This document shows positions 20,437 through 39,747 of a stretch of DNA of 64,000 bases, piece by piece. The position numbers and the translations under genes were made by a program. Source of the DNA: an uncultured Acidobacteriota bacterium (GTDB taxonomy: Bacteria; Acidobacteriota; Thermoanaerobaculia; UBA5066; Gp7-AA6). Each line of letters opens with the position of its first letter. The stretch's first letter is position 1. The stretch covers positions 67,140-131,139 of the forward strand of contig CAWGOM010000008.1 in assembly GCA_963824165.1 (NCBI GenBank), in the 5' to 3' direction. Under the pieces are notes generated by a model, which saw only the letters and a list, made by a program, of their open reading frames with translations, was not told where the DNA came from and searched no databases.

Positions 20437-20493
20437 CGCCGGGTCTCCTTATCCGTCGCCGAAGGGTCGGCGGTAAGGAACGTCGCTCCCGTC

Positions 20494-20523
20494 GCCGAAC
20501 GCGTGGCGGGTCACTGCGAGCGC
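20494..20523 (-). repeat. attC relic (half site)
   Basis: gccgaacgcgtggcgggtcactgcgagcgc against the family left arm gcctaacgggtggcgggtcagcggcgagcgc. No partner arm is adjacent. Confidence 0.55.
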
Positions 20524-20795
20524 TCGTGATCTCGCAGGATGCTCTCGATCTCCTCGATCGTGAACGAGTTGAGTTGCACCACCAGCGCCTGCGTGCGGAA
20601 TGCCGGCGGGACGATGCCGCGGGCCTCGTCCTTGCTGTCGACCTCCACAATGATCCAGGCCTTGTGCACCCCGTCCCTGCATCCCCAGTCCGCGGTGCTC
20701 AGGAAATGGGACCCGGTCTTCAGGAAGACGTCGACGACCCGTGCACAGGCCACCGTCGACGACTCGTGAGGAACCTCGATGAGAAATCTTGCCAT
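20511..20795 (-). CDS. hypothetical protein
   Basis: 94-aa ORF whose 3' end runs into the attC relic. Confidence 0.5.
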
Positions 20796-20832
20796 CGCTT
20801 GGGATCTCCTCCGTCACGCGAAAATACCATCG

Positions 20833-20869
20833 CCTCGGCGAGCGCGTTCGCTGCACCCGCGGATCAGGC
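20833..20869 (-). repeat. attC relic (internally deleted)
   Basis: cctcggcgagcgcgttcgctgcacccgcggatcaggc resembles the terminal attC (cctcggcgagc...gagtccgctgcacccgcgggttaggc) with the centre missing. Confidence 0.55.
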
Positions 20870-21061
20870 CGCGCCGCGATCGTCCGTCGGCTTGGGTCCG
20901 GGCCACCGATACGACCAGCACTCGAACGCACTCCAGAGCAATCCGATCAGGTCACCGGAGATCCAGGACCACTCGCGGGAAACCGACGCGTCCATTCGAC
21001 CGACCCCGATCCGCCGAACTGCACCTGCCGGGCCACCGCGGGAACGGATTGGCGACCCGTC

Positions 21062-21478
21062 CTAGGACTTCGCTTTCTTCGAGGGTTTCGACCTGCCGGA
21101 ACTGTTGAGGGCGACCGCCTGGCGAACGAGCGCCTTGAAGGCGGACTCGTCGACCTTTTCTCCTTCGTGGATGTCGATCGCGCGGCGCGTGTTTCCGTCG
21201 AGGCTCGAGTTGAAGAGACCCGCCGGATCCTTCAGAGACGCCCCCCTGGCGAAGGTGAGTTTCACGTGATTCTTGTAGGACTCGCCGGTGCAGATGATGC
21301 CGTCGCGCGACCAGATCGGATTCATCCACTTCCACTCCTCGACGACGTCCGGGGCTGCTTTCGTGATGAGCCTGCGCATTCTGCTGAGGGTTTCCCCGCG
21401 CCAGTCCCCGAGGTCGGCGATTCGTTTCGAGATGAGCTCCGATGCCGGCTGGCCCTGGCTCGCGTCCGACTTTTTCAT
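21062..21478 (-). CDS. DUF1801 (YdhG-like) protein
   Basis: 138-aa ORF containing [14 protein letters not shown]...EEWKW...[11 protein letters not shown]. Confidence 0.7.
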
Positions 21479-21588
21479 GTCCTCATCCTGGAGCGAGATT
21501 CCGACGGCTCGTCACGCTGGCGAGCGCTCCGTCCTCCAACGGCCCTTCCAGCGACTCTGCGATCGTACTTTCCGGGCGACGGCGCCAT

Positions 21589-22116
21589 CTACCGCTGTCC
21601 GATCGCTACCGTCATCAGCTGAGTCGCGACTGACGCCTCGCGGCAACCGGAGCGCTGATCGCACGCAGCCGGATCGACGAGCTTCACCCATCCTGTGACT
21701 TTCGCCGTGCCGGTGCCGGCGCGCAGAGTCCTGAGCGGAACCGTCTTCGACCAGACGATCTTCTGGCCAGGCAGGAGCGTAAACCTCTCGTCGCAACTCG
21801 GATGGTCGGCGCGAACGAGGTGGCCTGCATCATGCCCGTCCACAATCACGCTGACGCCCCACGACGGCCCAAAGCACCCCTCGAATGACGTCGACCCCTT
21901 GTTCGTGAGAGCGAACTGCGCCGTCACCGACGTGTCGCCCACCGCCAGGTCGCTTCCCAATGACATTGCGAGGCTCAGGCTCTGGCCAAAGCTCGACCCC
22001 GGCCGCGCCACCGCCGGTGTCGCCGAGGCCGCAGGGGTCGGGGAGGTGCACGCCGCAGCCGCAATCGCGACAAGGACGAGGCCGCCGAACCACTTCCGCG
22101 ACTTTCCGGCGCCCAT
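21589..22116 (-). CDS. hypothetical lipoprotein
   Basis: 175-aa ORF with signal peptide and lipobox AAAAC. Confidence 0.5.
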
Positions 22117-22135
22117 CCCGCCACTCTAGCGCTTT

Positions 22136-22213
22136 GACGTAACGACGTCACGACTCCTCGGCGAGCTCCGAGCCGAAGGCGAGGAGCGAGTCCGCTGCAC
22201 CCGCGGGTTAGGC
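22136..22213 (-). repeat. attC (terminal, distal arm divergent)
   Basis: Right end cgagtccgctgcacccgcgggttaggc is canonical. The left end is gacgtaac...cctcggcgag. Confidence 0.75.
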
Positions 22214-22927
22214 CGCATCCGGGACCTGCCCCGCGCGCAGCGCGAGCCACGCGATAATTCCAGAGTTGAGATCGACAAGGACGTGGAGCACGATCGCTGG
22301 CCAGAGGGAGCCGAAAATCGCCACCACCAGCGTGAGGAACGTGCCGACGATTCCCGTGCGGAGGGCGCCATTCCATCCCTGGTAAGCATGCGAGCTCGCG
22401 AAGATCAGAACTGACAGCGCCGCCGCGCCCCACCAACCGAGCCACGGGGCCAGGGCCCAGATGAAGTACCCCCGGAACAGGAACTCCTCGCAGAACCCCG
22501 CGGTCAGCGACACCCCTCCGAACCAGTACAGTTCGGTTCGCGTGTGCGGCCCCGTGACGTCGGCGAGCTTCCCCATCTGCTGCCGCACGCTCGCCCTGAG
22601 CTGGGAGTCGCGGGCAACCGCCGCGGCCGATTGGACGTTATAGACCACGAGCAGCAGCACCAGGCCAACCGCCACCCACAACCGCCAGCCATCAGGCACG
22701 GAAAAGCCGAGTGAGGTCCAGGATCTGTCGTTGGCTACCCACAGCGCCGCCCCGACGGCGACCAGGGCCCACAGGCCACCCATGGCGCCGCTCCAGAGCC
22801 GCTTCCGAGCCCGCGCCGGATCGGCTTGCAACTGCCGATGAAATGCCGGCCAAAAGACGAGGTAGTCCCACAGCGGCATGGCGACCGCAAACAGCGAGAC
22901 GTAGAGCAGGTCGGGAAACGTGGTCAT
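22208..22927 (-). CDS. CPBP-family intramembrane metalloprotease (cassette)
   Basis: Starts at the Met at 22927 (MTTFPDLLY). Motifs EEFLFRGY, SSHAYQ and HVLVDL. The stop is the TAA inside the attC core. Confidence 0.8.
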   Translation of the reverse strand: MTTFPDLLYVSLFAVAMPLWDYLVFWPAFHRQLQADPARARKRLWSGAMGGLWALVAVGAALWVANDRSWTSLGFSVPDGWRLWVAVGLVLLLVVYNVQSAAAVARDSQLRASVRQQMGKLADVTGPHTRTELYWFGGVSLTAGFCEEFLFRGYFIWALAPWLGWWGAAALSVLIFASSHAYQGWNGALRTGIVGTFLTLVVAIFGSLWPAIVLHVLVDLNSGIIAWLALRAGQVPDAA

Positions 22928-22989
22928 CAGCACTCCGCTGGCAGTCTGGAACCACACATCCGGCTCCGGAGAGCCACGTCGCCGGCGCC

Positions 22990-23060
22990 GCCTGACGGGT
23001 GGCGGGTCAGCGGCGACCTCCGAGCCGAAGGCGAGGAGCGAGTCCGCGCGCGTGTTAGGC
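22990..23060 (-). repeat. attC
   Basis: gcctgacgggtggcgggtcagcggcga...gagtccgcgcgcgtgttaggc, 71 bp. Confidence 0.85.
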
Positions 23061-23453
23061 GGTCGGCCGCTTCTTGCCACGACGTGACTTCGGTGCCTTG
23101 CGAGGCCGAGGCGCTCTGGGCCGGACGTGTCGAGGCTGGTAGACGCCCAGCTTGCCACCGCCGGGGAGCGTCACGTGGGTAAGCTCGCCCCAACCCACGC
23201 TCTGAATCGGGCCGCAAGCAACTCGTCGCCTCTCCATTTCCGCAACAAATGCGCGGATATCCCCGCACATGAAGTAGAACTCGTGAACGTCGTTCCTCCG
23301 CGACGGATGAACGGCAAGCTCGGCCGGCGGGAGGCCGAAGATGAGCCAGCCGCCCCCGGCGTCGACGTGCGGGAGCCCAAGGATGTCGCGGAGAAACGTC
23401 CGGTCCAACTCCGGTTTCCGGCTGTAGATTATCGAATGAGCGCCGATGATCAT
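23055..23453 (-). CDS. VOC/glyoxalase-family protein (cassette)
   Basis: 132-aa ORF MIIGAHSIIYSRKPELDRTFLRDILGL with a basic tail. The stop is the TAA in the attC core. Confidence 0.7.
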   Translation of the reverse strand: MIIGAHSIIYSRKPELDRTFLRDILGLPHVDAGGGWLIFGLPPAELAVHPSRRNDVHEFYFMCGDIRAFVAEMERRRVACGPIQSVGWGELTHVTLPGGGKLGVYQPRHVRPRAPRPRKAPKSRRGKKRPTA

Positions 23454-23499
23454 GTGCGTCTCCCATGCAGAACGACGTGCGCGTGGGCGGATCTTCGGC

Positions 23500-23575
23500 C
23501 GCCTACCGGGTGGCGGGTCAGCGGCGAGTGACCAGCCGAAGGCGAGGAGCGAGTCCGCCGCACCCGCGGGTTAGG
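23500..23575 (-). repeat. attC
   Basis: gcctaccgggtggcgggtcagcggcgag...gagtccgccgcacccgcgggttaggc, 76 bp. Confidence 0.85.
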
Positions 23576-23619
23576 CGGCCTGGCGATGCGTGCACCAGCG
23601 GGAGCGATTCGCATCTCTT

Positions 23620-24045
23620 TCATGCAGTTCCTTCTTCGAAGAAGAGCGCCATCGTATCGGCCGGCCAGTCCATCGCCCGATTCGTCCCCTTGTCCACGCA
23701 CGCGACGATCATGAGGCAGCGCGACAGGCTCTTGCCAGCCTCATCGACCATAGTGCACTCGATGTGCGCATCGGGTCCGCGGAACTCGCGCACGAACGAC
23801 GTGATCGTGATCTCCTGGTCTCCGACGGCAGGCTGTACAAAGTCGACTTCCATCTTTCGGACCCAGGCCATGAATGGCAGCTTCGCAAGAGTCTTCAAAT
23901 CCCAGCCGACATACTCACGTAGGCCATTCATCCGATGATCGACGTAGTAGCCCGAATACACTGCCGTCCGGAGATGATTATAAGGATCGAGCTCGGAGAA
24001 CTTGATCCTGTGCGTGCTCTTGAAAACTACCGGCATTGTCGGCAT
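23620..24045 (-). CDS. hotdog-fold acyl-CoA/ACP thioesterase (cassette)
   Basis: 141-aa ORF with HRIKFSELDPYNHLRTAVY...MEVDFVQPAVGDQEI, the 4HBT-like pattern. Confidence 0.7.
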   Translation of the reverse strand: MPTMPVVFKSTHRIKFSELDPYNHLRTAVYSGYYVDHRMNGLREYVGWDLKTLAKLPFMAWVRKMEVDFVQPAVGDQEITITSFVREFRGPDAHIECTMVDEAGKSLSRCLMIVACVDKGTNRAMDWPADTMALFFEEGTA

Positions 24046-24173
24046 TCGGCTCCTTTATGTCTCGCGGAAGCCGCCGCTGGCGGGGCGACGCGCTGCGAGC
24101 CCCGGACACGCAACTTCCACGCATTGCGGCTGCCGTATCGAAGGTTGGAGACGATGGACTCTGCGACCTAAGC

Positions 24174-24238
24174 CGCCTACCGGGTGGCGGGTCAGCGGCG
24201 CGGATTCGCCGGCAGGCCGACCGCCGTCTTCCGTCAAC
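24174..24238 (-). repeat. attC, degenerate
   Basis: The left arm gcctaccgggtggcgggtcagcggcg is canonical. The right arm ends ...cgtcaacg instead of gttaggc. Confidence 0.55.
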
Positions 24239-24255
24239 GCAACCCCATCAGTCCG

Positions 24256-26321
24256 TCAAATCGCCAGTCCAACGTCGCCTTCGAGCACCGATGTCTTCAG
24301 CTGCGGGCGCTCTCCGCTCTTCCACAGTGCAGCAGTGTGTAATACCCGATACCTGATGGGCCCCCCGTCCGGTCTTTCGCTGCGCGCAATGGGGCGCGGG
24401 ATGCAGACATACTCGGTGCGCATCTCATCGGCCGACAATTGGACCTTCGCATAACCGTGTCCTCCAAGATCGACGAACTCGAGGTGCGGAGCGAGATCCG
24501 GGTTGGACAGCGACCGTGCGCGCTTGAGGTCGAAGCTCTTTGCATATTCGAGGCACGCACGGACGCCGTGCTTCAGCAGCATGTTGAAGGTCCAGTCCGG
24601 CTTCGCCCCCGCCTCCCTGTCAGCAAGAAACAGCGGTCGTAGCGGAGCGTCCTTCGGAAGTTTGTGCTCATAGGCCTCCATGGCGCCGGGACTGACGAGT
24701 GACGCGCCAACGAAACTCAAGCCTACCGGCTCGAACTTGCCGGGGGGAAGTTCCGCAGTCGCATATCCGGCCCAGAAGCTGTGGCGATCGCCCGAGACGA
24801 TGGCGAAGCCCGTAATCTTCGCGTCGCGCACGAGATGGTAGATTTCCGCGCGCTCTGCGTACGCTGTGCCGTAATCACCCCCGCCCAGGGCTGCGAACGT
24901 GTTCTGGGGCCAGGACTCCTTGGTGAGACCCGCGCGGCAGGTTCTGCGGGTCGGCGCGCCAATCCAGCGCGCCCAGCGAGTTGCGCCCAGATTTTCCACG
25001 CCGCGGTCGAGCTCTTGAGCTTGTCCTTGAACCATGCCTTCTGCTCCGCCCCGAGAATCGTTTGCGGCGGCGCGCTCCGTTGCGGGTTGGGGACATGCGC
25101 ATCGTTGAACCGGATTTCCGGAGGAGGATTGCCGCCGTTGAAGCCGCGCCCGCCGTCGAGAACCTGCATCTCAGACTCAGGAAACATCCCGATGAACTCG
25201 TCGCCGCCGAGCTTTCCGAGAGACGGATCGCTGAAGGGATCCGCGCTCCGATAGCTGTGCTGGTCGGTGATGATCAGGTCCAGGTGCTGACCGTACCGCA
25301 GCGCCCGGTAGGCCTTGAGGCTGTTGATCGCCGTCAGGTTGTTCGGTTCCATCCCCAGCCCATCGCTATCGAACTCCTTGATGGGAACGTCTTTTACAGC
25401 GGGTGGATCGAAACGCTCGAGCAACCCGCTCGGCGGAGCGACACGTGCGGGGAGGTATTCGAACCAGGCCTGATTCGCCGCGACCTTGACGCTCTGGCCG
25501 GGCTGCTCGAACGACCCCGCCTTGACGATGCTTTGCCAACCTTGCCACGAGAATTCGTGGTTGTCCCAGATGGCGACGAACGGCCAGCGCGCGCGAGCGT
25601 CCTGGAGGTCGGGATCGGCGAGATAGCCTTTGTAGATGGCCCGGTAGCCGTCGACGGTCAGCGGTATGTGGAAGTTGCCGACCTTTGGGCCGTCCGGGAG
25701 GCGCGCAACCTCATAGATCGTGCGGTCGTAGCGTGTCTTCACCTCGTCGGGATACTCGACCACCTCGTAGATGAAATCGCCCAGGTGCAGAACGAAGTCG
25801 AGCTGTTGGGCGGCGGGAGCGCGTTCATCTTCGTAAATCATCCGGCGATAGGCGTTGAGCTTGCCCTCATTGACATCCTGACAGCTCACGAATGCGAAGT
25901 TCACCGTGCGCGGATCGTTTGGCAACGGCGCGGTGATCGTGCGGCCGACCCGGCTGCCGTTTCCGTCGGTGTCGGTAAACCGATACCAGTAAGTGCGCGC
26001 CGGCTTGAGTCCGCCAATCAGAACGCGCGCGGTCCAGTCCGCGGCGCTCGAGACCGGTGCCTGCGCGTGCGCAATGACTCGGCGGAATGCCTCATCCTCG
26101 GCGACCTCGACGGTCAGGAGCTGGCGTGTGCCCTGGGCAAACGGACGCCTCGTCCACAGGATGACGCTGTGCGGATCGGGATCGCCCGAGGCGACCCCCT
26201 GGGGATAGAGATCACGCCGCTCATGCCAGTGGACACGCGAACCTCGAGCCGGTCCGACCCATGCGAGCGAAGCACCGATTGCTGCTGCAGCTTTGAGAAA
26301 GGATCGGCGGCTAATCTTCAT
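24256..26321 (-). pseudogene. phoD: PhoD-family alkaline phosphatase, Tat signal, two frameshifts (cassette)
   Basis: N-terminal part MKISRRSFLKAAAAIGASL...GVASGDPDP. The sequence after ...TAAWKIW continues as GNSLGALDW in frame 2 (ORF 24875..25102), then AGLTKESWP... in frame 3 (ORF 24256..25035). Confidence 0.8.
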
Positions 26322-26613
26322 CGTCTCACTCCGTCCGGGCTGCAGTTGGCGTCACCTCAGGGTTCGGACGCGAACGCCCGCTGAGACAAGTACGTACTCT
26401 CTGCCCGTAGGTTGCTGTGGCGTGTAACGCTTCGATCAAATGCGACGATCCGGCAATCTGAACGCCGGACGTCGTCGCCGGCCTTCCACTTCGTTCGGCC
26501 CATGGCCGGACGGGACTCGCTGAGCCGGTTGATACTTCCAGGGCCGCCTGTTTCAGCTGGAGGGCATTGCTGTCCGACTCCTGAGATGACGCCTGGCTAA
26601 CCTTCCGACTGTC

Positions 26614-26674
26614 GCCTAACGCTCCGGTTCAGCGGCCGCAACGCAGCGCCGTCCGCTGCAACCGGTTGTTAGGC
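26614..26674 (-). repeat. attC, short subfamily
   Basis: gcctaacgctccggttcagcggc...gtccgctgcaaccggttgttaggc, 61 bp. Confidence 0.85.
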
Positions 26675-26773
26675 GGGGCAAGCCCACACGCCGCCTTGCA
26701 GCCAAGGACTCCGAACGAGACAGTGTTGCAGGTTGATTCCCCATCGGCCGAGGGGTTTCGGCGCCTTGGTCTG

Positions 26774-27235
26774 CTATGCGTCATCGTACGCTCTCTCCAG
26801 TGCCGCCACGTCCAGCTTCACCATCGTCATCATCGCTTCCATCACAGCCTGTACCTTCTTTGGGTTCTTGTCGCTGATGAGCTCCATGAAACGCCTCGGG
26901 ACGATCTGCCAAGTAATGCCGAACGGATCGGTGATCCAGCCACACTGCAATGGGGTTGCGCCGGCGCTGACGAGCTTGTTCCAGTACTCGTCAACTTCTT
27001 CCTGGTCTTCGCAGTCGACAAAGAGCGAGAAACCTTGGGAGAATGTGAAGTACGGGCCGCCGTTGTAACCCATGAAGGACTGACCACCGATGACGAATTC
27101 GGCGGAAGTGACTGGGCCGTCCTTACCAGTGCGCGCGACGCTCTTGATCTCCGAGTCCGGGAATGTCGCAGTGTAGAACGCCATTGCAGCGTCGAGTTGG
27201 TCGTTGAACATCAGGAAAGGTGTCACTTTGCGCAT
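26774..27235 (-). CDS. VOC-family PhnB-like protein (3-demethylubiquinone-9 3-methyltransferase domain) (cassette)
   Basis: Starts at the Met at 27235. Contains VTPFLMFNDQ...GGQSFMGYNGGP...CGWITDPFGITWQIVP. Confidence 0.75.
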   Translation of the reverse strand: MRKVTPFLMFNDQLDAAMAFYTATFPDSEIKSVARTGKDGPVTSAEFVIGGQSFMGYNGGPYFTFSQGFSLFVDCEDQEEVDEYWNKLVSAGATPLQCGWITDPFGITWQIVPRRFMELISDKNPKKVQAVMEAMMTMVKLDVAALERAYDDA

Positions 27236-27262
27236 CTGCGTGTCTCCTCTTCTCGGGTCTCC

Positions 27263-27338
27263 GCCTAACGGGTGGCGGGTCAGCGGCGAGCTCCGAGGCG
27301 AAGCCGAGGAGCGAGTCCGCTGCACCCGCGGGTTAGGG
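27263..27338 (-). repeat. attC
   Basis: Canonical 76-bp family member; the right core reads gttaggg. Confidence 0.9.
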
Positions 27339-27614
27339 CGGCCACGTGAAGCTTGTCGTACAAAAGCTCCGGTGCGAAGTCCGCGCCGTTGGGCCATGAG
27401 ACCGTTCCAAGGTCGCGCGAAACCGCAAAGCGACGAAAGTAGTCTCGGTCCCGAAGCGGTTCGAAAGCCGGTCCGGGGAGGTCTCCATCGACCGCGCCGT
27501 CCGCAATTCGCACGGTCACTTTGTGCCCCGAGTATCGAGCGTGAAATGAGCGGGCTCGTGCTCCCGGTGGTACATCGTGATCACGATTCCGAGAAACCGG
27601 CAAATTTCCGGCAC
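27280..27614 (-). pseudogene. DUF4160 N-terminus joined to DUF2442-like C-terminus, one frameshift, reads through attC (cassette)
   Basis: GTG at 27614 gives (M)PEICRFLGIVITMYHREHEPAHF. A 1-nt shift near 27545 leads into HARYSGHKVTV...FEPLRDRDYF...GTVSWPNGADFAPELLY. The stop at 27280 is inside the attC. Confidence 0.55.
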
Positions 27615-27685
27615 CTGCGAATCGTAACCCGATGCACCCGGGCCGCCCAAGGGGCGGAGAGGCGGCGACTCCCATCCAACCGTGG

Positions 27686-27874
27686 TCAGGCGCTCTGTTC
27701 CTTGCCAGCCGTGTCACCTGCGGCCCGGTGAATCCGCCGAACCTCTGATGCCTTGCGAGCGCCCAGCCGATCCATCTTGCTGGTCGAGTTCCCAACGACC
27801 TTCTGAGGCTTGCACATGCCGTGGCGAGCTCCGCCCGCACGCTGCCTCTTCGCCCTTCCGCGCTTGTGGTGCAC
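27686..27874 (-). CDS. hypothetical small basic protein (cassette)
   Basis: 62-aa ORF MHHKRGRAKRQRAGG...CKPQK. No family named, and it could be spurious. Confidence 0.3.
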   Translation of the reverse strand: MHHKRGRAKRQRAGGARHGMCKPQKVVGNSTSKMDRLGARKASEVRRIHRAAGDTAGKEQSA

Positions 27875-27910
27875 GTTGAGACTCTACGCCCACATCGGTG
27901 TCTTACGACC

Positions 27911-27986
27911 GCCTAACGGGTGGCGGGTCAGCGGCGAGCCCCGAGGCGAAGCCGAGGAGCGAGTCCGCTGCACCCGCGGGTTAGGC
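27911..27986 (-). repeat. attC
   Basis: Canonical 76-bp family member. Confidence 0.9.
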
Positions 27987-28005
27987 CACGGCGACCGATC
28001 CCCGT

Positions 28006-28260
28006 TTACCGAATGATGCGTTCGTACTCCGCGTGGGTACCGATCCAGAACCAAACGACTCTGTCTGCGGCGTCGACTCCAAGAGCTCGGTACGACCGCC
28101 CCACACGAACCGACCAGAACTGCCCAAGCCGCTTGAAGTGCAGAGAGGGGTGGTACGGATTCGACTGGAGCAGGCCGTAATTCTTGCGCGCCAACTCCTG
28201 AACGTCGGCTGGCAGCCTCTCCAGACTGGCCCAGAACCGAGACGTTGCGAGGTGCTTCAA
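28006..28260 (-). CDS. RelE/ParE-superfamily toxin (cassette)
   Basis: 84-aa ORF containing ...FWSVRVGRSYRALGVDAADRVVWFWIGTHAEYERI. It overlaps the upstream antitoxin ORF by 4 nt. Confidence 0.7.
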   Translation of the reverse strand: MKHLATSRFWASLERLPADVQELARKNYGLLQSNPYHPSLHFKRLGQFWSVRVGRSYRALGVDAADRVVWFWIGTHAEYERIIR

Positions 28261-28457
28261 ATCTCCCTGGTCTCGCCCCGCTTGTGTTCGGCCAGAGCCT
28301 CCGCCGCAAGACGATCAAGCTTTCCCGCCTTCACATCGGCTTCCATCTGCCGATCCCAAGCGTCGGCATCGTACTTCGCAAACCAGTCACGAAATGCCGC
28401 AAGCTCCTCAGCCGACAGCTTCTCGATCTCACGTTCGAGAGTCTCAACCTTGCTCAT
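28257..28457 (-). CDS. antitoxin partner (addiction-module component) (cassette)
   Basis: MSKVETLEREIEKLSAEELAAFRDWFAKYDADAWD..., a small acidic helical protein overlapping the toxin start. Confidence 0.6.
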   Translation of the reverse strand: MSKVETLEREIEKLSAEELAAFRDWFAKYDADAWDRQMEADVKAGKLDRLAAEALAEHKRGETREI

Positions 28458-28518
28458 GGCCAAATGATACCAAGCAGCCAATCTCTCTGCCCATCAAGAG
28501 GTTCAGGTTGCTTCCGTG

Positions 28519-28582
28519 GCCTAACGCTCCGGTTCATCGGCGGCCCGCGCAGCGAGCCGTCCGCTGCAACCGGTTGTTAGAC
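28519..28582 (-). repeat. attC, short subfamily
   Basis: gcctaacgctccggttcatcggc...gtccgctgcaaccggttgttagac, 64 bp. Confidence 0.85.
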
Positions 28583-29275
28583 CGCATCTCCTCTGGCCAG
28601 AAGGTAGACACCAACGCAAACGAACCAGAGCAGCCCTGCTACGGACGCCACCTCAAGAGGGATCGCGACACCACTCTCGGACAGAGCGGACGAAATGGAC
28701 ACCCCGGCGATCATGCTCGCCGCCACCTGAACGAACCCGAGGCCCGACATCCACCTGGGAAGTGTTGCCGACCGCCAGCCAGCGACACTGAAGCCCAGGA
28801 TCAGCATCGACCAGGTGACGACCTCCGCAGTAAAGAGGACGCGCGTGAGGCCGAACAAAGCAAAGAAAAGGTCCTGGCTCTGATTGACTGGGGGGGTATT
28901 GAGGAACGCGAGGATCTCAACGCCAGTCGTGACGATTCCGTTCGTCACGAAGACGGCCGCTCCCAGCAGGCCCACAGCGCCCCACCCCATCTCGCTCGCC
29001 GGGCGCGTACGGCACGTTCTCGCAAACAAGGCCGCGGCAAAGAGAACGATGCACATGAAGGCCAAGTACCGACAACCGTGGATGATCGCCCAGGTGCCCG
29101 CCTCGCGAGCGAGGTACTCCTGTAGCTCGGAGGACGTCGGATTGTCCGGAGGAAACTCCTTCAGGACCATATTGAGCACGATGTGGACCATCATGCCAAC
29201 GATGATCGCGAGGCCACCAATACGGATGAGGCTTGACTCGCCCGCGCGCGAAGTGCTTGTGCCGCGACTCACCAT
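28577..29275 (-). CDS. multi-TM membrane protein, DUF4386-like (cassette)
   Basis: 232-aa ORF with about 6 hydrophobic segments and a ...LPRWMSGLGFV motif. The stop is the TAA in the attC core. Confidence 0.55.
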   Translation of the reverse strand: MVSRGTSTSRAGESSLIRIGGLAIIVGMMVHIVLNMVLKEFPPDNPTSSELQEYLAREAGTWAIIHGCRYLAFMCIVLFAAALFARTCRTRPASEMGWGAVGLLGAAVFVTNGIVTTGVEILAFLNTPPVNQSQDLFFALFGLTRVLFTAEVVTWSMLILGFSVAGWRSATLPRWMSGLGFVQVAASMIAGVSISSALSESGVAIPLEVASVAGLLWFVCVGVYLLARGDAV

Positions 29276-29289
29276 GGGACCCCTTGTCG

Positions 29290-29365
29290 GTCTAACGGGT
29301 GGCGGGTCAGCGGCGAGCCCCGAAGCGAAGCGCAGGGGCGAGTCCGCTGCACACGCGGGTTAGGC
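29290..29365 (-). repeat. attC
   Basis: gtctaacgggtggcgggtcagcggcgag...gagtccgctgcacacgcgggttaggc. Confidence 0.9.
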
Positions 29366-29389
29366 GGCCGCACCGACCACTCCCTGCTT

Positions 29390-30625
29390 CTACTGCCGCC
29401 CTGTCTGTCGTCCTTCATTCTTCAATGCCTCGGCGTGCTTCCAGAGCTCACGGAAGATGTCGACGTGGTGACGTTCTTCCTCGCCAGACAGCGAGGTGTT
29501 CGTGAACAGAATCACGCCGATATCCTTCGAGAGGTTTGTAAGCATCCAAGTCCTCAACCCGGGATCGGATCCGTTGTGTCCCATTCGAGTGACATTGAAT
29601 CTGCTTTGCCAGAAGAGTCCGGAGTTGACTTCCTGAAGGCTCACATTTGCCGGCTTGCTCGACTCAGTGTACTGAAAACGGGTCATCTCCTCTACCCAGC
29701 GCCTATCCAGGATCCTTGTCCCCCCGTACACGCCGTCGTTGATAATCGCGATGAAGAACTTCGAGAGGTCAGACACGGACGTACGGACACCGCCATCCGG
29801 ATAGGTCGTTAGCTCATAGAGCTGTATCGGAATGCTAGAGCCGTTCTGCGTCACGTACAGCGTCGTGTGCTTAACCGGATCAACCTCGGACAGACGCCAA
29901 CCTGAATTGCTCATTCCCAGAGGAACAAAGATGCGCTGCTTCGCATATGCGTTTAGCTTCATACCTACGGCGAGCTCGACAACATAGCCGGCCAGCCCGG
30001 CCGCGATGTTCGAATACTCGCGGTGCGTCCCCGGCTTGACGTTCAGGAAGTTGTCTTTCGAGTAGTGCGTCCCGCTCGGCACGACGTAGCTCTTTAGAAA
30101 GTCGCCCAAGGGCTCCGGGGCGTCGCCGCCGTAATGGTACGTCTCCTCGTAAACCGACGGTCGGTCGGTGATGCTTGAGGTATGCGTCGCCAACTGCCGC
30201 AGGGTGATCTTCTCATTCGGATAGTACGGATTGCTTACCCTGAATGGCAGGTAGGAATTGATGTCCTCATCGACGGAGAGTTTGCCCTCCTGGACCGCAC
30301 GCATCAGCGCCACGCCCGTGAACGTCTTGCTAATCGAGCCGATGTTCATGACCGTATCGGGTGTAAAGGCCACGGCGCGTCCTTTGTCGGCAAATCCGTA
30401 GCCCTTCATCCATACGACTTTCTTGTTTACGATAATGGCCGCACCAAGACCCACGATTCCGGCCGCCTCCATCCGCTGGCCAATGAGGCTGTCAATCGTA
30501 TGGTCTGCGCTTGAGGTTGGTGGTTGGGACTGGTCTCCATCCTTAACCTGTCCTGTTACCTGTCCGGTAAGCAGGTAGATGGCGGCAGTCGCGATCGCTG
30601 AAATTATTACTGCGTTGCGTTGCAC
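29390..30625 (-). CDS. beta-lactamase-fold serine hydrolase (class C / family VIII esterase-like) (cassette)
   Basis: 411-aa ORF with N-terminal anchor, S-x-x-K motif (GSISKTF) and YSN motif. Visibly more A/T-rich than its neighbours. Confidence 0.8.
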   Translation of the reverse strand: MQRNAVIISAIATAAIYLLTGQVTGQVKDGDQSQPPTSSADHTIDSLIGQRMEAAGIVGLGAAIIVNKKVVWMKGYGFADKGRAVAFTPDTVMNIGSISKTFTGVALMRAVQEGKLSVDEDINSYLPFRVSNPYYPNEKITLRQLATHTSSITDRPSVYEETYHYGGDAPEPLGDFLKSYVVPSGTHYSKDNFLNVKPGTHREYSNIAAGLAGYVVELAVGMKLNAYAKQRIFVPLGMSNSGWRLSEVDPVKHTTLYVTQNGSSIPIQLYELTTYPDGGVRTSVSDLSKFFIAIINDGVYGGTRILDRRWVEEMTRFQYTESSKPANVSLQEVNSGLFWQSRFNVTRMGHNGSDPGLRTWMLTNLSKDIGVILFTNTSLSGEEERHHVDIFRELWKHAEALKNEGRQTGRQ

Positions 30626-30723
30626 AGTGAGTCCCTTTTGCGGACACGCTGATCATCTCATCGGTTCCGAAACTCCGATGGAGCCAGGCTGACTCGGCAC
30701 CCTGCTGAGAGCGCCTTCGGGCC

Positions 30724-30799
30724 GCCTAACGGGTGGCGGGTCAGCGGCGAGTGACGAGCCGAAGGCGAGGCACGAGTCCGCTGCACCCGCGGGTTAGGC
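30724..30799 (-). repeat. attC
   Basis: Canonical 76-bp family member. Confidence 0.9.
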
Positions 30800-30802
30800 G
30801 GC

Positions 30803-32048
30803 TCAACCATTAGCTGACTCCACGGTTACCGACGTGGCCAGGCGGAAGGGTTGGACCTTGCCGTAAGTGAGACTCCGCCAGCACCACTCTGCTGGTCCAA
30901 AGCGGTATCGCGTCATCCAGGCTCGCGCCAGCACAACCTGCACCACGTAGCCTACGACGGCGACGGCAGCGAGTCCCGCCGGTCCCACTTTTCCCATGAG
31001 CGCAGGCCCGTGTGCGAAGCCGTAGAACATCCAGATGCCGAAGAGCGTCTGGAGCAGATACCACGTCAGGGCCATACGGCCCATCGGGGCGAGCAGGCTC
31101 ACCACCCGTCTCCAGCGCGCGACGAGAAACGCCAGAGCAACGGCGGACGCGTAGGCCAATGTCAGCCCGAGCTGACCTCCCTCGACGAGCAGCCGTCGAC
31201 TGAACGCCAGCCACGGATTGTCAGGAGCGCCCGTCAGAACTCTCCCGGCGAAGATGCTGCTTCCGACTACGCCAACGAGTCCTCCGACGAGAAGGACCTT
31301 TCGAAGCAACGTGCGATGCCCGCCAAGGTTCCCCAGGTTGAGCGTGCGGGCAACGTAGAGCCCGAGAATGAGGCGCCCGAAGACGGCCACTTGGTATCCG
31401 ATCTGATCGATGGAGAGGGTCAGATACCAGTCGTACCGCCAGTTCGCCTTCAGGACCTCGCTGTAGCTCCCACCGCTGAATGCGGCGAGAGCCATCGCGT
31501 CGTAGTCGGTCGTTGCCGTGACCGGGTGGGTCAGTCCGGCCTCCGCGGCCGGCGACGAGCGCTGGGAGCAGCACGCCGGTCGCCAGTGCGATTCCGAGTA
31601 GGCGCCTGGGCGCGGTTCGCACGAAGAGCGGGAGCAGTACGGCCCAGAGGGCGTAAAAACGCAGAATGTCGAAGCACCACAGGAGCCAACCATGGATTGC
31701 CCCGATCGCGAACAGCCAGAAGATCCTCCGATAGAACGGCGCGGTCACCGACGTAGCTCTGCCGCCCACTCGACTTAGGAACAGCCAGAAGCTGATGCCG
31801 AAAAGAAGCGAGAAGAGACCCATGAACTTGTTCTCGATGAAGAATCGCTCGAAGAAATAGGCGATGGTATCGAGCCGACCGCGGAATAACGACGCCCGTT
31901 GCTCCTCGGTCAGGTACTCGATACCCGAGAAGATCAGCAGGTTCGCCCAGAACACGCCAAAGAGGGCAAACCCTCGGAGTGAATCCACGAACTCCACGCG
32001 CCCGGCTGCGGGTATCGCGTCGCCGACATCTCTCATCCGTCGCCCCAA
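30803..32048 (-). pseudogene. DUF418 (YeiB-like) membrane protein, one frameshift (cassette)
   Basis: N-terminal part (ORF 31221..32048) contains FVDSLRGFALFGVFWANLL. The C-terminal part (ORF 30803..31693) contains ...MALTWYLLQT...RYRFGPAEWCWRSLTYG. The shift is near 31560. Confidence 0.8.
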
Positions 32049-32181
32049 ACGCCGGAGACGCCCATGTGATCGGTCAGGACCGCTGGAGCGTAAGCCAAGC
32101 TGTTCCCGGATGACATGAGTGGTTTCAACGAGCGAAGCGTTCCCCTCACACTGCTGCCGCGCCGCCTAGCCGTGGTCGTAT

Positions 32182-32424
32182 TCAGCCGAGAAACCTGAGT
32201 GCCTTCTGCGGCACGACTGGATAGTGGTACAACCCGCGTTCACGATTGCTCATTGTGCGGGTCACGTTGGCGAACTCGCTGTAGAACTGGCGCTTCGTCA
32301 TCCTGAACGTTCCCAAGGGCGTGACGATCTCGAACACGTCACCGTCCGCAAGCGGCTCGATTACCGATGCCCTGAACCCAAGACGGTGAAACTTGTAGCG
32401 AGCTGCTTTTCTACCTGTACTCAT
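32182..32424 (-). CDS. hypothetical protein (same cassette as the DUF418 gene, or its attC has been lost)
   Basis: 80-aa ORF. No attC was found between it and the DUF418 gene. Confidence 0.45.
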   Translation of the reverse strand: MSTGRKAARYKFHRLGFRASVIEPLADGDVFEIVTPLGTFRMTKRQFYSEFANVTRTMSNRERGLYHYPVVPQKALRFLG

Positions 32425-32446
32425 AGGTTTCTCACAACCTGGAGCC

Positions 32447-32522
32447 GCCTAACGGGTGGCGGGTCAGCGGCGAGCCCCGAAGCGAAGCGCAGGGGCGAGT
32501 CCGCTGCACCCGCGGGTTAGGC
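32447..32522 (-). repeat. attC
   Basis: Canonical 76-bp family member. Confidence 0.9.
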
Positions 32523-32780
32523 GCCGGCGACGAGGGGAAAGCGCTCGGGATGCTCGATGGATTCCACCGAGAGATCCACGTCGAGATCCGGCCAGTAGAG
32601 ATGATCTGCATGTGGCCACTCGACATTGAGAATCTTCGAAACCGGCGCGCTGGCAAACCAGGGGAACTTCTCGAACGAGACGAACAACTCCCGGCCCCCA
32701 AGGAAGAGCCAGAACCCTTGCCTCGATATGTTGGCAACTTCAACCTGCGAAGTGCCTGCGCCAAGCTTGTCGGATCTCAT
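32517..32780 (-). CDS. DUF2442-family protein (cassette)
   Basis: Starts at the Met at 32780. Contains ...VEVANISRQGFWLFLGGRELFVSFEKFPWF...HLYWPDLDVDLSVESI. The stop is the TAA in the attC core. Confidence 0.65.
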   Translation of the reverse strand: MRSDKLGAGTSQVEVANISRQGFWLFLGGRELFVSFEKFPWFASAPVSKILNVEWPHADHLYWPDLDVDLSVESIEHPERFPLVAGA

Positions 32781-32982
32781 CTTGCCGCCTCTCCAAAAGC
32801 TCTTGAATTCTAGCAATCTCGCGCTCAGGAAAGCCGTAATTTGCGTGCAACTCGACCTGCGGCTCCATCCAAAACTTCGCTTCTGCCTCAGCGGATTGGA
32901 CATGAACGTGCATCCGCGCCTCTTCCCTGGAGAAGAAGAACACTCGGATGCCGCCCTCCCGAAAGACAGTTGCTGCTTCGGC
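32740..32982 (-). CDS. DUF4160-family protein (cassette); start codon unresolved
   Basis: GIRVFFFSREEARMHVHVQSAEAEAKFWMEPQVEL...EIARIQELLERRQDEIRQAW. No ATG/GTG/TTG lies between the attC and this motif, so the start may be inside the attC. Confidence 0.6.
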   Translation of the reverse strand, partial: AEAATVFREGGIRVFFFSREEARMHVHVQSAEAEAKFWMEPQVELHANYGFPEREIARIQELLERRQDEIRQAWRRHFAG

Positions 32983-33061
32983 GCCTAACGGGTGGCGGGT
33001 CAGCGGCGAGCCGGGGCGAGCGCAGCGAGCCACGCGAGTCCGCTGCACCCGCGGGTTAGGC
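32983..33061 (-). repeat. attC
   Basis: gcctaacgggtggcgggtcagcggcgag...gagtccgctgcacccgcgggttaggc, 79 bp with a variant centre. Confidence 0.9.
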
Positions 33062-33116
33062 GGCCGGACGCCTAGGCCACTTTGGCACCACGAATGCACG
33101 GACAGGCTCTCCGATC

Positions 33117-33287
33117 TCACGGAAGGATTAGCGCGCGGACAGGGTATCCAAATGCGAGCGCCACGGTCGCGACGACAGGTGCTTGAGCGAGGGTCCAGCC
33201 GGTAGCAACCGCGGCCGTCTGCCGCCACGCGCTTGGGTTGTCACGGCGGGCCACTGTCGACCTCACTTTCATGGCGTCGCCCAGCAT
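33117..33287 (-). CDS. hypothetical small membrane protein (cassette)
   Basis: About 56-aa ORF starting at the Met at 33287, with one hydrophobic segment. Confidence 0.35.
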   Translation of the reverse strand: MLGDAMKVRSTVARRDNPSAWRQTAAVATGWTLAQAPVVATVALAFGYPVRALILP

Positions 33288-33325
33288 AGCCCGACAGGCG
33301 ACGGGTACGAGGCGGTGACACGGCG

Positions 33326-33384
33326 GCCTAACGCTCGGCATCAGCGGCACGCGTAGCGCCGTCCGCTCCATGCCGTTGTTAGAC
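33326..33384 (-). repeat. attC, short subfamily
   Basis: gcctaacgctcggcatcagcggc...gtccgctccatgccgttgttagac, 59 bp. Confidence 0.8.
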
Positions 33385-34093
33385 GGCGCCCTCAGTGGTG
33401 ACGCCAACGGTCGCAGGCCTTCCCATCTTGAGCAGCTTCCGGCCGACGAGCGCGGTCCAGATCGGCAGTGGCGCGACGCCCAGGAACCCCCCGATGGCTG
33501 AGGATGTTGTGGAGGATTTCGTTCGCCCGCTCCGTCCCCGCCGGGGGATCGCGGTTGAAGGGAAGCGGGCCGAAAGTCGGGTCAACGAAGAGGAAGTTCC
33601 CGACGGGGAAGACGGCAGCGATCATCAGACCGACACCGACCACCGTCCCGAACCACCTGAGGCCCCGGGGGAAGGCGCCAGCCACGAGCCGGTTGACGAC
33701 GATGAGCCAGAGCCCGAGCAAGCCCTGCCAGAGCATGAAGAAGGGGCCTGCGAGGACGTTGGCGATGATGAGTAGCAGAGTCAAAGTGGTGAGCACGAGA
33801 GCCGCGATGCCTGTCGCGACAATCGATCGGCGCGCGCCCGGAGAACGCTGGCCGACAATGCCGCCGAAGGAGAGCACGAGCGGGATCATGAAGAGAGATT
33901 GGACAAGGACTCCGACGTCGTGGGTCGTGATCAGAGGCCTGCAGGTCTGCTCGTCGCTCCCCGAGATCATCGTGATCAGGAACGCCCACAGGAACCCGTA
34001 GGCGACGAGGCCGATCACGCCGCTCGTGATCGCCGCTCGGCCTGCGGAGCGATACGATGCCGCGGTCGTCTTTGCGGAAGTTGATGTCGACAT
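33379..34093 (-). pseudogene. multi-TM membrane protein, one frameshift (cassette)
   Basis: ORF 33392..34093 is hydrophobic. The C-terminus ...GGFLGVAPLPIWTALVGRKLL continues in ORF 33379..33585 and ends on the TAA in the attC core. Confidence 0.55.
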
Positions 34094-34118
34094 CGTCGCG
34101 ATTCCCTCTAGATCTGCC

Positions 34119-34194
34119 GCCTAACGGACGGCGGAGCTCTTTTCGATCTCAGCCATCGCCACCGGCTGAGCAATGCTGGCCGCGAACGTTACGG
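34119..34194 (-). repeat. possible divergent attC or remnant cassette
   Basis: gcctaacggacggcgg ... gcgaacgttacgg, 76 bp with core-like ends but poor arm pairing. It lies 19 bp from the next attC. Confidence 0.4.
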
Positions 34195-34213
34195 CACAGA
34201 GCCCGATGAAGCG

Positions 34214-34289
34214 GCCTAACGGGTGGCGGGTCAGCGGCGAGCCCCGAGCCGAAGGCGAGGACCGAGTCCGCTGCACCCGCGGGTTAGGC
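34214..34289 (-). repeat. attC
   Basis: Canonical 76-bp family member. Confidence 0.9.
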
Positions 34290-34712
34290 GGCTGCACTGG
34301 GTACCTCAACCGCTTTCCGACGCCTTTCGATCGCCCAGCACATTGCGAAAGCTACTCCTGCGGCCACGAGCGCTTTCGCCAGTTGGGGCAGGAGGTCCAT
34401 CAATGTTGGTGTGACGTACCAACGCGTCGCTGACCAAGTGCATACGCCCACGAAGACGCCCACCCCTGCCGCCCAGGCCAGCGGCCTCGCCGTCTCGAGA
34501 CAAAACCCGGCCGCTACGCCGGCCAACGCCGCTCCCAGCGCGACAGGGATCGTGTTGAGCGCGTGCATCACCAACGTCTGCCAACCGCCCTGATACGTGC
34601 GACCCTCCGTGAGCTTCGAAATCAAAAGCCAGAATGGGATGATCAGCCACGATGCTAGGTAGTAAGCACCGATCATGACCAACGCGTTCCGAAGCCACAA
34701 CTGCTTCCCCAT
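34284..34712 (-). CDS. hypothetical 4-TM membrane protein (cassette)
   Basis: 142-aa hydrophobic ORF. The stop is the TAA in the attC core. Confidence 0.55.
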   Translation of the reverse strand: MGKQLWLRNALVMIGAYYLASWLIIPFWLLISKLTEGRTYQGGWQTLVMHALNTIPVALGAALAGVAAGFCLETARPLAWAAGVGVFVGVCTWSATRWYVTPTLMDLLPQLAKALVAAGVAFAMCWAIERRRKAVEVPSAAA

Positions 34713-34723
34713 GCTTTTCAGCC

Positions 34724-34799
34724 GCCTAACGGGTGGCGGGTCAGCGGCGAGCCCCGTAGCGAAGCGTAGGGGCGAGTCCGCTGCACCCGCGGGTTAGGC
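34724..34799 (-). repeat. attC
   Basis: Canonical 76-bp family member. Confidence 0.9.
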
Positions 34800-34838
34800 G
34801 GCCGCACAATGGACACCCGCGATGAAGCGTAGGCCGAC

Positions 34839-36533
34839 TCATTTGTACCTCGTGTGCCCGCGCGTCGGCGTCACAGGCTTCGCCGCGTCAGACGCACGCC
34901 GCACGTCGTCGTCTGTGAAGACTGCGAAAAGGAACGGCAGCGATTCGAGGAAGTGCAGCCAGCCTCGCAACGTCAGACCAAGATCCGACAGCCGGTCTTC
35001 ATCAACGAAGATTTGGCAGTTCTCCGGCATCGAAGGACGTAATCAGCTGCTTCGCCTCAGGATCGAACTTCTCGTGCAACAGATCAACGATCGACGGCGC
35101 ATAGTGACGGCGGTCCGGCGACGGCGGTTCCGACGGCATGCCATGGTCGGCGGTCACCGCGAGAAGATAGTTGTTCCCAACCTTTGCCTCCAGCGCACGT
35201 CAGCATCCGCGCCAGCTGACGGTCCATTTCGCCGAGTGTGACGCGGAGCTCGTTCGAATCCGGACCGTACTTGTGGCCCACGAAATCCGCGCCCTTGAAG
35301 TTCAGCAGAACGAGATCGGCGACGTTGTCTTCGCCCAGCGGGCTCGCGCTCGATCATCGCGGTCATCGCATCGGCCTCGAATGCCGGAAACAGGGCCGAA
35401 TAGCGGACCGCGACGGGCGAATCGACTCTGTGACTGCATCCACTCACCGTCCGCCGGCGGCAGTGTCCTCGCGTTTCGATCCTTCAGGTACTCGGGCAGC
35501 CGGTAACAATTGGGATTCGTGGTCCAGCCGCCCGTCTGCTGGTCGTAGCTTGCGAGCACGACCGGCGCTCCATTCAGCTGACACGCTCCATGCCCCGCGA
35601 GCGGCGTCGCCGCTCGGTCGATGCTGCCCTGCGCCAGAATGATCGCGCGACCAGCTGTCGCGAGCTGCCAGACGTCTGCCAGCGTCAATGCCATCAGATC
35701 TTGCGGCGTCGCTCCTGCGAATAGGTTGTGGCGCCGGCGGTTGATGCGATCGTACACGCTGACGCCGGTGATTCCGTGCACGCGAGGATCGGTGCCCGTC
35801 GAGATCGTCGAGTGCCCAACGGCGGTGTTCGACGGGAAGGATGTTGACTCGCGCCTGAGTGAACCAGGCGCTGCGCTGGCGCAGGGCGGTCGAGCGTCGG
35901 CATGGAGCCGGCGTACCGATCGAAGTAATCCCGACGCATGCCATCCAGGACGAGCAGCATGACCACTCGCGGTCGAGCAAACGACGTCCGCAAGACCGGC
36001 AATACACGGCCTGTCGCGGTCGGGGGCATCTGCACGCCAAGCGCACGCCGCAAGCGTAGGCGCAACGTCCTGCTGCGCCGCCGGCATCGAGTACACCCCC
36101 GTTTTCACTGCAGGGCCCGCAAACATCAGCGGAATCGAGACGTCATACGACCCACGGCGAACCGTGCATGTACGCCACGTCCGGGTCAGGCCGGGTGATG
36201 AAGTCGCCTTCACGCGGCACGATCAGGAGTTGGCCAGTTCGTCCGGGAAAGTATGCCCGAGCGAACATTTCGAGGAAGCGCTGTCGCGCCGCAAGGGTCG
36301 GCGGCATCGGCTGACGCCACACGCGGCGTTGCGCCGCCCCCAGAAGATCGCTTGACCTGCTGGCCGGAAATCGTCCAAGCCATCGCGACCAGGGTCAGGG
36401 CGAGGAGGACGGCACTGCAAGCGGTCAGCCTCGAGCAGATGACAGAGGTTCGCCGCGTCGTCACCGCACCTGCCTCAAAGAGGAGATCAGCGACCCGCCG
36501 TCGGCTTTCGCTGGGACTATCGACGCCTGACAT
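34839..36533 (-). pseudogene. alkaline-phosphatase-superfamily (nucleotide pyrophosphatase/phosphodiesterase-like) protein, many frameshifts (cassette)
   Basis: Fragments in several frames: VVMLLVLDGMRRDYFDRY, HSTISTGTDPRVHGITG, NFKGADFVGHKYGPDSNE and TADHGM-type C-terminus. The N-terminal TM segment is in ORF 36210..36533. Confidence 0.65.
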
Positions 36534-36538
36534 CGGCC

Positions 36539-36614
36539 GCCTAACGGGTGGCGGGTCAGCGGCGAGCCCCGTAGCGAAGCGCAGGGGCGAGTCCGCTGCA
36601 CCCGCGGGTTAGGC
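36539..36614 (-). repeat. attC
   Basis: Canonical 76-bp family member. Confidence 0.9.
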
Positions 36615-36623
36615 GGCTCCTTG

Positions 36624-36962
36624 TCACAGCCGTCCCGTCCCACCGAGTGGCGATACTGGCTTGCTTTTCTTCCCGCGATACTTGGCTTCGAGATCGCGCC
36701 ACCCCTTTTCCTCAAGAAGCCGGAATATGCCGGCCACCACCAATGCCAGCACGACAGCGCCAAGAAGCGATCAGCATGCCAAAGTAACTGAATTCCACCA
36801 TCCAGAACGGTGCGATACGTTTCACGCGCCCTCTCCCGCCGACACTTTCGCGACAGCGCGCGAGACAACACTGTGCAGCGCAACGGCCGATCCGAGGCCG
36901 GCCAGGATGAGGCCAGCCGCGAATAGCCGGCGACGGGATGCTAGTGCATATCGACCGTCCAT
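36624..36962 (-). CDS. small hypothetical membrane protein(s), frame-disrupted (cassette)
   Basis: A 46-codon ORF MDGRYALASRRRLFAAGLILAGLGSAV (36822..36962), then MVEFSYFGMLIAS... shifting into LGAVVLALVVAGIFRLLEEKGW... Confidence 0.3.
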
Positions 36963-36975
36963 CGTACCTAGAGCC

Positions 36976-37051: not shown

Positions 37052-37054
37052 GCC

Positions 37055-39270: not shown

Positions 39271-39279
39271 CGCGCTTGC

Positions 39280-39742: not shown

Positions 39743-39747
39743 CGCAC

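Follow-up and report, generated by a model that had tools for sequence, protein, structure and literature searches.

The 76-nt repeat found at positions 27911-27986 of the window (the whole stretch of 64,000 nucleotides that we analysed) is very probably the attC site of a sedentary chromosomal integron of the inverted-intI type in an Acidobacteriota, Thermoanaerobaculia-like, genome, and C at position 16 is a habit of the lineage. We assign it as an attC because the repeats adjoin a TIGR02249 integrase gene and a conserved attI ending in GTTAGGC, are spaced at cassette-sized distances, and have outer boxes of the RYYYAAC/GTTRRRY type. The 27911 family is a canonical attC apart from the lineage-wide C at the L'' bulge, and this variant is tolerated according to published mutagenesis. 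The features of the site and of its array are listed in Table 1.

The plus strand of the site begins with GCCTAAC GGGTG GCGGGT CAGCGG, continues into an apical part consisting of CGAGCCCCGAGGC, GAA and GCCGAGGAGCGAG, and returns through a 3' arm that reads T CCGCTG C ACCCGC GG GTTAGGC. The initial annotation had folded this repeat by hand, and single-stranded DNA folding with DNA parameters reproduced the fold: a 7-bp R stem, a GGGTG/GG internal loop, the helices GCGGGT/ACCCGC and CAGCGG/CCGCTG, and an apical stem closed by GAA. ViennaRNA placed one extra T-G pair within the GGGTG/GG loop. The two bases that had been proposed to be unpaired on the plus-strand 3' arm, one on either side of CCGCTG, are T27964 (site position 54) and C27971 (site position 61), and both were found unpaired. 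The T had an unpaired probability of 0.95-0.99 in nearly all sites. The probability was 0.80 for C27971 and 0.93-1.0 for the equivalent C at 23 of the 26 folded sites, and it fell below that range at the damaged sites 22990 and 23501. The inner L'/L'' repeats GCGGGT/ACCCGC therefore carry an extra unpaired base in the bottom-strand L'', as is characteristic of attC sites, and this base is C.

Table 1. Features of the 27911 attC site and of the surrounding integron (window coordinates).
Feature	Position	Strand	Basis
attC site, 76 nt, family A; plus is the bottom (recombinogenic) strand	27911..27986	+	Sequence and folding
R' box GCCTAAC (RYYYAAC)	27911..27917	+	Sequence; consensus from PMC5027507
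Predicted cleavage point	between A27916 and C27917	+	By analogy; cleavage point from PMC5027507
Central spacer, 5' side, GGGTG, unpaired, purine-rich	27918..27922	+	ssDNA fold
L' stem GCGGGT, pairs with 27972-27977	27923..27928	+	ssDNA fold
CAGCGG, 5' half of the 6-bp stem between the extrahelical bases	27929..27934	+	Fold, clade alignment
Variable terminal structure (VTS): apical stem, two tandem G-A mismatches, GAA triloop	27935..27963	+	
Extrahelical T, canonical position 23	27964	+	Folds, structural scan, RNAalifold
CCGCTG, 3' half of the 6-bp inter-bulge stem	27965..27970	+	Fold
Extrahelical C, canonical position 16 (G in characterised sites)	27971	+	Folds, scan, RNAalifold; PMC2727003
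L'' stem ACCCGC	27972..27977	+	Fold
Central spacer, 3' side, GG	27978..27979	+	Fold
R'' box GTTAGGC (GTTRRRY)	27980..27986	+	Sequence
Cassette array, ~29 attC sites, cassette genes on the minus strand	20492..44336	-	
Full family A sites (76-nt type), 71-79 nt, n=22			
Family A site with long VTS, 116 nt	41069-41184		
Family B sites, 59-64 nt (three)	26614-26674, 28519-28582, 33326-33384		
Truncated sites (two)	22137-22213, 24175-24217		
Degenerate arm pair (one)	20492/20869		
attI region	44689..44768	-	~70 nt after the intI stop codon conserved across species, core GTTAGGC at 44695..44689
Integron integrase gene	44769-45968	-	TIGR02249

Counted from the 3' end, the C and the T occupy positions 16 and 23 with the 6-bp stem between them, so they stand at the canonical G and T positions, as the initial annotation had supposed. 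Published attC architecture has two or three extrahelical bases, with G16 in L'', a conserved T at 23 or 24, and between the first and last of them the 6-bp spacing that IntI1 needs (PMC5027507, PMC7439510, PMC3053210). A layout with the canonical T adjoining the R'' box was also considered and was ruled out, since PMC5027507 has G16 in L'' and T23/24 nearer the loop, separated by the 6-bp stem. An attC usually has an unpaired central spacer of about 5-6 nt on each arm between its R and L boxes. In family A the GGGTG of this spacer lies across from GG and is followed by 3 paired nt (GCG/CGC), and the spacer is asymmetric, with R-to-L triplet distances of 8 nt and 5 nt. The innermost L' triplet of the 27911 site, GGT/ACC, stands where the canonical GTT/AAC L-box triplet would be.

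Two further properties of the hairpin were observed. Two tandem G-A/A-G mismatches (CGAG...CGAG) frame the apical stem and are kept in the majority of family A sites as well as in many relatives. The sequence of the inter-bulge stem, CAGCGG/CCGCTG, is nearly invariant in the window (27929-27934/27965-27970) and in the related loci L001-L040, and in the long helix that holds it (columns 14-27 with 137-152) 4 of the 13 pairs never vary among 104 distinct sites from 18 loci. Characterised attC sites lack sequence conservation in this stem. Its invariance here could reflect base-specific contacts or recent common descent.

The second bulged base had been read as C rather than G, and this was confirmed by a structural scan that looked for the R boxes, the L triplet, the 6-bp stem and a bulge on each side, and ignored the identity of the bulged bases. 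In the window the scan found 24 sites, among which 22 had T-N6-C, all on the plus strand; position 16 was C in 22 and G in one. In L001-L040 it found 248 sites (T-N6-C in 213), with C16 in 226 (91%) and G16 in 8 (3%). In the loci L041-L080, which come from other phyla and have integrases 54-60% identical, 63 sites were found (T-N6-C in 30), with C16 in 43 (68%) and G16 in 8 (13%). The background of the scan was ~14 hits per shuffled replicate, compared with 335 real hits. C at position 16 is the norm of the integrase clade and not a peculiarity of a single site.

For clinical and Vibrio sites, alignments have shown the first extrahelical base to be 'almost exclusively a G' (PMC2727003). The G16C change in the VCR, the attC of Vibrio cholerae, lowered bottom-strand recombination merely 2.7-fold (PMC2727003). 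An engineered T-N6-C site was excised by IntI1 as well as T-N6-G, and by IntI2*179E, IntI3 and SonIntIA better (PMC3053210). Since the VCR change is mild, T-N6-C is excised well and natural attCdfrA1 has a C, C16 is mechanistically unsurprising. Our literature search, in which Ghaly et al. 2021 was searched by term, found no description of the bulged-base identity for Acidobacteria attC sites.

The integrase itself matches TIGR02249 with 433 bits (cutoff 265) and aligns to VchIntIA (PDB 2A3V) with E = 7e-84. The aligned contacts to the extrahelical bases take in the IntI-specific alpha-I2 / beta-4,5 region (PMC3053210). Going from VchIntIA to this integrase, Q145 becomes K, W157 becomes R, K209 remains K and Y210 becomes F, while W219, P232, H240 and H241 are unchanged. 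The contact residues are thus conserved with VchIntIA or equal to those of IntI1, with Y210 to F as the sole difference; Y is kept at this position in the more distant integrase relatives of the alignment. Among the aligned contact residues we saw no clear signal of a change that would account for C in place of G.

We observed two additional segments in the integrase. A proline/glycine-rich insertion of ~26 aa (residues ~243-268) lies between DPR, the P232 equivalent, and RRHH, the H240/H241 equivalents, within the hairpin by which VchIntIA holds the extrahelical T; among close relatives its length ranges from 0 to ~40 aa. The other is a conserved C-terminal extension of ~50 aa (residues ~350-399) with an acidic tail.

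The initial annotation had interpreted paired changes at the second apical pair as selection on structure. The pair does vary as C-G (4), T-A (4) and G-C (3), but it is unpaired in 5 of the 16 distinct sequences, and site 27911 itself has CCCC/GGAG, with a C-A mismatch at this pair. Columns 39/46 of the array are G-C (9) or C-G (6). Within the array only four pairs vary on both sides, and these are limited to the apical stem. Within family A the pairs of the R boxes and of the L stem show little or no variation, so that these stems can hardly be judged from the array alone. Covariation of the L stem is supplied by family B, where GCGGGT/ACCCGC is replaced by CCGGTT/AACCGG or CGGCAT/ATGCCG. The case for structural selection on the R and L stems rests on related loci, because these stems are constant within the array.

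Such loci were brought together in a clade alignment of 111 sites (104 distinct) from 18 more distant loci with related integrases, fitted to the model built from the array. Here 93.9% of the cells were paired and double changes occurred in 20 of the 28 pairs. The covariation score was 0.267, compared with 0.065 for shuffles and at most 0.059 for slid-partner controls. The L stem changes from GCGGGT/ACCCGC to GCGCAT/ATGCGC or GCGGCT/AGCCGC, and the inter-bulge stem of relatives from CAGCGG/CCGCTG to CACCCG/CGGGTG or CAGCCG/CGGCTG. The fit to the model biases this alignment towards the structure. This concern is reduced by a control in which 32 sites were aligned by MAFFT without regard to structure: RNAalifold returned the same helices and left exactly the T and C columns unpaired.

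The plus strand had been proposed as the bottom strand and the minus strand as the top strand, in agreement with the orientation of the cassette ORFs, and several independent observations point the same way. The arm that carries the bulges faces the AAC triplet on the plus strand, whereas on the minus strand bulges and AAC share one arm; by the published criterion the former is the geometry of a bottom strand and the latter that of a top strand (PMC5027507). Eleven minus-strand ORFs of the array match protein families (5 in NCBIfam, and 6 of 10 in Pfam), whereas 0 of 10 plus-strand ORFs tested match Pfam. The array has attI and intI at its high-coordinate end and therefore extends away from them in the minus-strand direction.

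The co-travel of attC sites with their cassettes is the most direct evidence for the polarity. The attC with the long VTS (41069-41184) is found in six other contexts (L001, L002, L003, L020), and in these its high-coordinate flank travels with it at 88-97% identity; identity of the low-coordinate flank is 58-74%, a range taken as about background without a random control. Since the long attC travels with its high-coordinate flank, each attC is the 3' end of a minus-strand cassette, with minus as the top and plus as the bottom strand, in agreement with the initial annotation. The neighbouring cassette 40856-41068 is also present in L003, where its low-coordinate attC is the same but the long one is replaced by a normal 76-nt site. 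We also tried to read the cassette orientation from variant R boxes and rejected this test as symmetric, since the boxes flanking a cassette are partners under either polarity.

Unpaired bases are purines in 78% of cases on the plus strand compared with 24% on the minus strand, and the GAA loop is on the plus strand. The plus strand was also more stable, by a mean of 1.55 kcal/mol, with the lower energy in 22 of the 26 folded sites (-21.6 vs -21.5 kcal/mol at 27911, -25.8 vs -23.9 at 37601). A stabler fold, purine-rich unpaired bases and a common GAA loop are traits of the bottom strand, which in known attC sites is 2.12 kcal/mol lower (PMC5027507). Folding energy was discarded as a strand discriminator, as the differences were merely 0.1-3.9 kcal/mol. 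By the same token, the proposal that equally good folding of both strands would speak against the strand assignment did not hold: near-equal folding refutes nothing, because the two strands of known attC sites differ by a similarly small ~2 kcal/mol.

Immediately past the intI stop codon, ~70 nt are conserved in ten related loci up to GTTAGGC, beyond which the sequences are unrelated, and BLAST homology of the chromosomal flank ends at 44686-44688. From this pattern we identify the conserved stretch ending in GTTAGGC as attI. The nearest relatives of the integrase come from Acidobacteriota and Thermoanaerobaculia metagenome-assembled genomes, the best being L020 with 99% protein identity, and the first cassettes differ between genomes with integrases as closely related as this. 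Beyond intI, the chromosomal flank (44.7-62 kb) shows synteny with many related metagenome-assembled genomes, which places the integron at a conserved chromosomal locus. The intI gene is transcribed in the same direction as the cassettes ('inverted-intI'), an arrangement which is already known (PMC4889954, PMC8352920). In L001-L040 the covariance model found more than 250 sites, all on the strand opposite intI and all downstream of it except one, L008:9118-9193. This exception belongs to a segment, L008:8606-9193, with an attC and a cassette homologous to 27911-28520 of the window, which lies across intI and outside the main array.

The array spans ~24 kb (20.5-44.3 kb) and adjoins the integrase gene and attI. 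The motif GCCTAAC-N(50-75)-GTTAGGC occurs 18 times, always on the plus strand, and 0 times in 100 dinucleotide shuffles. Fuzzy matching, together with a covariance model derived from 22 of the window repeats, raised the count to ~29 sites, in line with the 29 claimed initially. Cassettes are 0.2-2.4 kb in size and the sites are spaced accordingly. The R boxes fit RYYYAAC/GTTRRRY, with the variants GTCTAAC at 29290, GTTAGAC at 28582 and 33384, and GTTAGGG at 27338. Family B sites have the same T-N6-C bulges and canonical spacers of 6 nt and 5 nt, and two of the three carry the GTT/AAC L triplet. The ORFs with family matches represent 10 cassettes, since 24723-26321 and 24256-25035 fall in one interval. 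Their families are PhoD-like, beta-lactamase-fold, DUF418 (twice), quinone oxidoreductase, Rce1-like, thioesterase, 3-dmu-9_3-mt, DUF2442 and phosphodiesterase.

One could argue that the resemblance to attC is superficial and that the repeats are palindromes of a generic type, either REP-like or a terminator. They are indeed GC-rich imperfect palindromes between genes, and they match no Rfam family at the gathering thresholds; this null carries little weight, since to our knowledge Rfam holds no attC family. However, a covariance-model search of the 64 kb found no copy outside the array next to intI and attI, the RYYYAAC/GTTRRRY boxes are present, no T-run follows the hairpins in the sites inspected, and the same layout recurs downstream of intI in those L001-L040 loci that have covariance-model matches. 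We therefore regard a generic palindrome as extremely improbable. If the repeats are attC sites, the minus strand might still be the recombinogenic one, with cassettes read on the plus strand and each attC to the right of its gene. Perfectly palindromic R boxes give no orientation by themselves, the two strands fold with near-equal energies, and for the three family B sites the folding of the minus strand equals or slightly surpasses that of the plus strand. Yet the bulges would then share the arm of AAC, which is the published geometry of a top strand (PMC5027507), and this polarity would also run against the eleven matching minus-strand ORFs, the position of attI and intI, the flank that accompanies the long attC in six other contexts, and the GAA loop and purine-rich unpaired bases of the plus strand. 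A recombinogenic minus strand is thus very unlikely.

The apical paired changes admit another explanation, namely that a few VTS alleles were copied by cassette duplication or gene conversion without structural selection. About 8 VTS variants are present among 22 sites and several are repeated exactly; the five distinct sequences that break the second pair resemble half-and-half chimeras (CCCC/GGAG at 27911, for example), and shuffle controls ignore relatedness. But the same pairs are found in 104 distinct sites from 18 loci as many independent types (C-G 41, G-C 21, U-A 11), the L stem and the inter-bulge stem covary too in related loci, and the slid-partner controls, which keep relatedness, do not approach the observed score (at most 0.059 against 0.267). 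Copying alone is for these reasons an unlikely account. As for the C bulge, the integrases of the clade may have shifted the preference of their L''-side pocket from G to C, which would make T-N6-C a distinct code that biases exchange within the clade. This reading would include the near-invariant CAGCGG/CCGCTG stem, the Y210-to-F change and the variable proline/glycine-rich insertion at the T-holding hairpin; we consider it doubtful.

With the plus strand as the bottom strand, the sequence of events can be drawn from characterised integrons. Once single-stranded, the plus strand would fold into the hairpin, and T27964 and C27971, which have no partner on the 5' arm, would flip out. IntI monomers would bind the R and L boxes and hold the flipped bases in IntI-specific pockets. 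Cleavage of the bottom strand between A27916 and C27917 would follow, and the strand would be exchanged with attI or a further attC. A comparison of genomes shows homology that stops at the attI core and at the borders of attC sites, with cassettes recurring in different contexts; the cassette differences between related genomes suggest that the system recombines.

Among known sites, attCaadA7 is similar to the 27911 site in that its extrahelical bases are at bottom-strand positions 16 and 23 (G16 and T23 in aadA7) with a 6-bp stem between them. These positions were counted on what we take to be the aadA7 sequence. The two sites also have in common a short hairpin with RYYYAAC/GTTRRRY R boxes, 5 nt from the R'' box to the L'' triplet, and a GAA loop on the bottom strand (PMC5027507). 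They differ at position 16 (G there, C here) and in the L triplet (GTT/AAC there, GGT/ACC here). The R-L triplet distances are 6 and 5 in attCaadA7, whereas in family A they are 8, with the inner 3 nt paired, and 5. The apical stem is longer here and contains tandem G-A mismatches. Natural attCdfrA1 shares the C as the L''-side extrahelical base (Larouche and Roy 2011, PMC3053210), and its engineered T-N6-C derivative has exactly the bulge pattern of 27911 (PMC3053210). However, the natural form of attCdfrA1 is A-N7-8-C and its T-N6-C form was made in the laboratory, whereas here T-N6-C is natural and dominant across the lineage.

The V. cholerae superintegron resembles the present one in having a highly homogeneous attC family in one sedentary chromosomal array, and the integrase-contact residues are conserved between the two (2A3V alignment). 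The VCR differs in being ~130 nt long and in having a branched terminal structure and three extrahelical bases (G16, T20, T24). The Vibrio intI is oriented divergently from its cassettes, whereas here the two are co-directional. Inverted-intI chromosomal integrons (Treponema and others) are the known systems closest in arrangement. The attC sites of Acidobacteria have already been modelled as a taxon-specific family by a covariance model (Ghaly et al. 2021, PMC8352920).

These results mean that the attC rules derived from clinical and Vibrio sites extend to an uncultured, distant phylum of soil bacteria. This applies to where the bulges lie, to their 6-bp spacing, to the purine skew, to the GAA loop and to the polarity. 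The new detail is that 'almost exclusively G' (PMC2727003) reflects the sites that were sampled and not a requirement, as C is present in ~90% of the sites of the integrase clade. The prevalence of C16 is also relevant to models for attC detection that were trained on G-type sites. Since IntI1 handles T-N6-C well in published assays, the cassettes of soil arrays of this kind should be recruitable by class 1 integrons, and the present array includes a cassette for a beta-lactamase-fold hydrolase.

The latter cassette (29390-30625, minus strand) encodes a serine hydrolase that scores 97 bits against the class C model. Because this is far under the cutoff of 415 bits, the predicted product is not a recognised AmpC. 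Cassette 41069-41548 consists of the 116-nt attC and a 364-bp body without a convincing ORF. Copies are present in related arrays: L003 has three, L002 has two, and L001 and L020 have a single one. Possibly this is a cassette without coding sequence, or with a very small ORF, that was duplicated repeatedly. At the far end of the array (20492-20869), degenerate 5' and 3' attC arms surround ~320 nt. A 94-aa minus-strand ORF (20511-20795) lies between these arms and its stop overlaps one of them; the segment could be either an attC whose variable region contains a gene or a decayed site. Most large sedentary arrays have their bottom strands on the leading-strand template (PMC5371416). In the window the GC skew, a possible indicator of replication direction, is weak, and gene orientation confounds it. 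The GC content of the array (20000-46000) is 60-65%, lower than the ~70% of the chromosome that flanks it.
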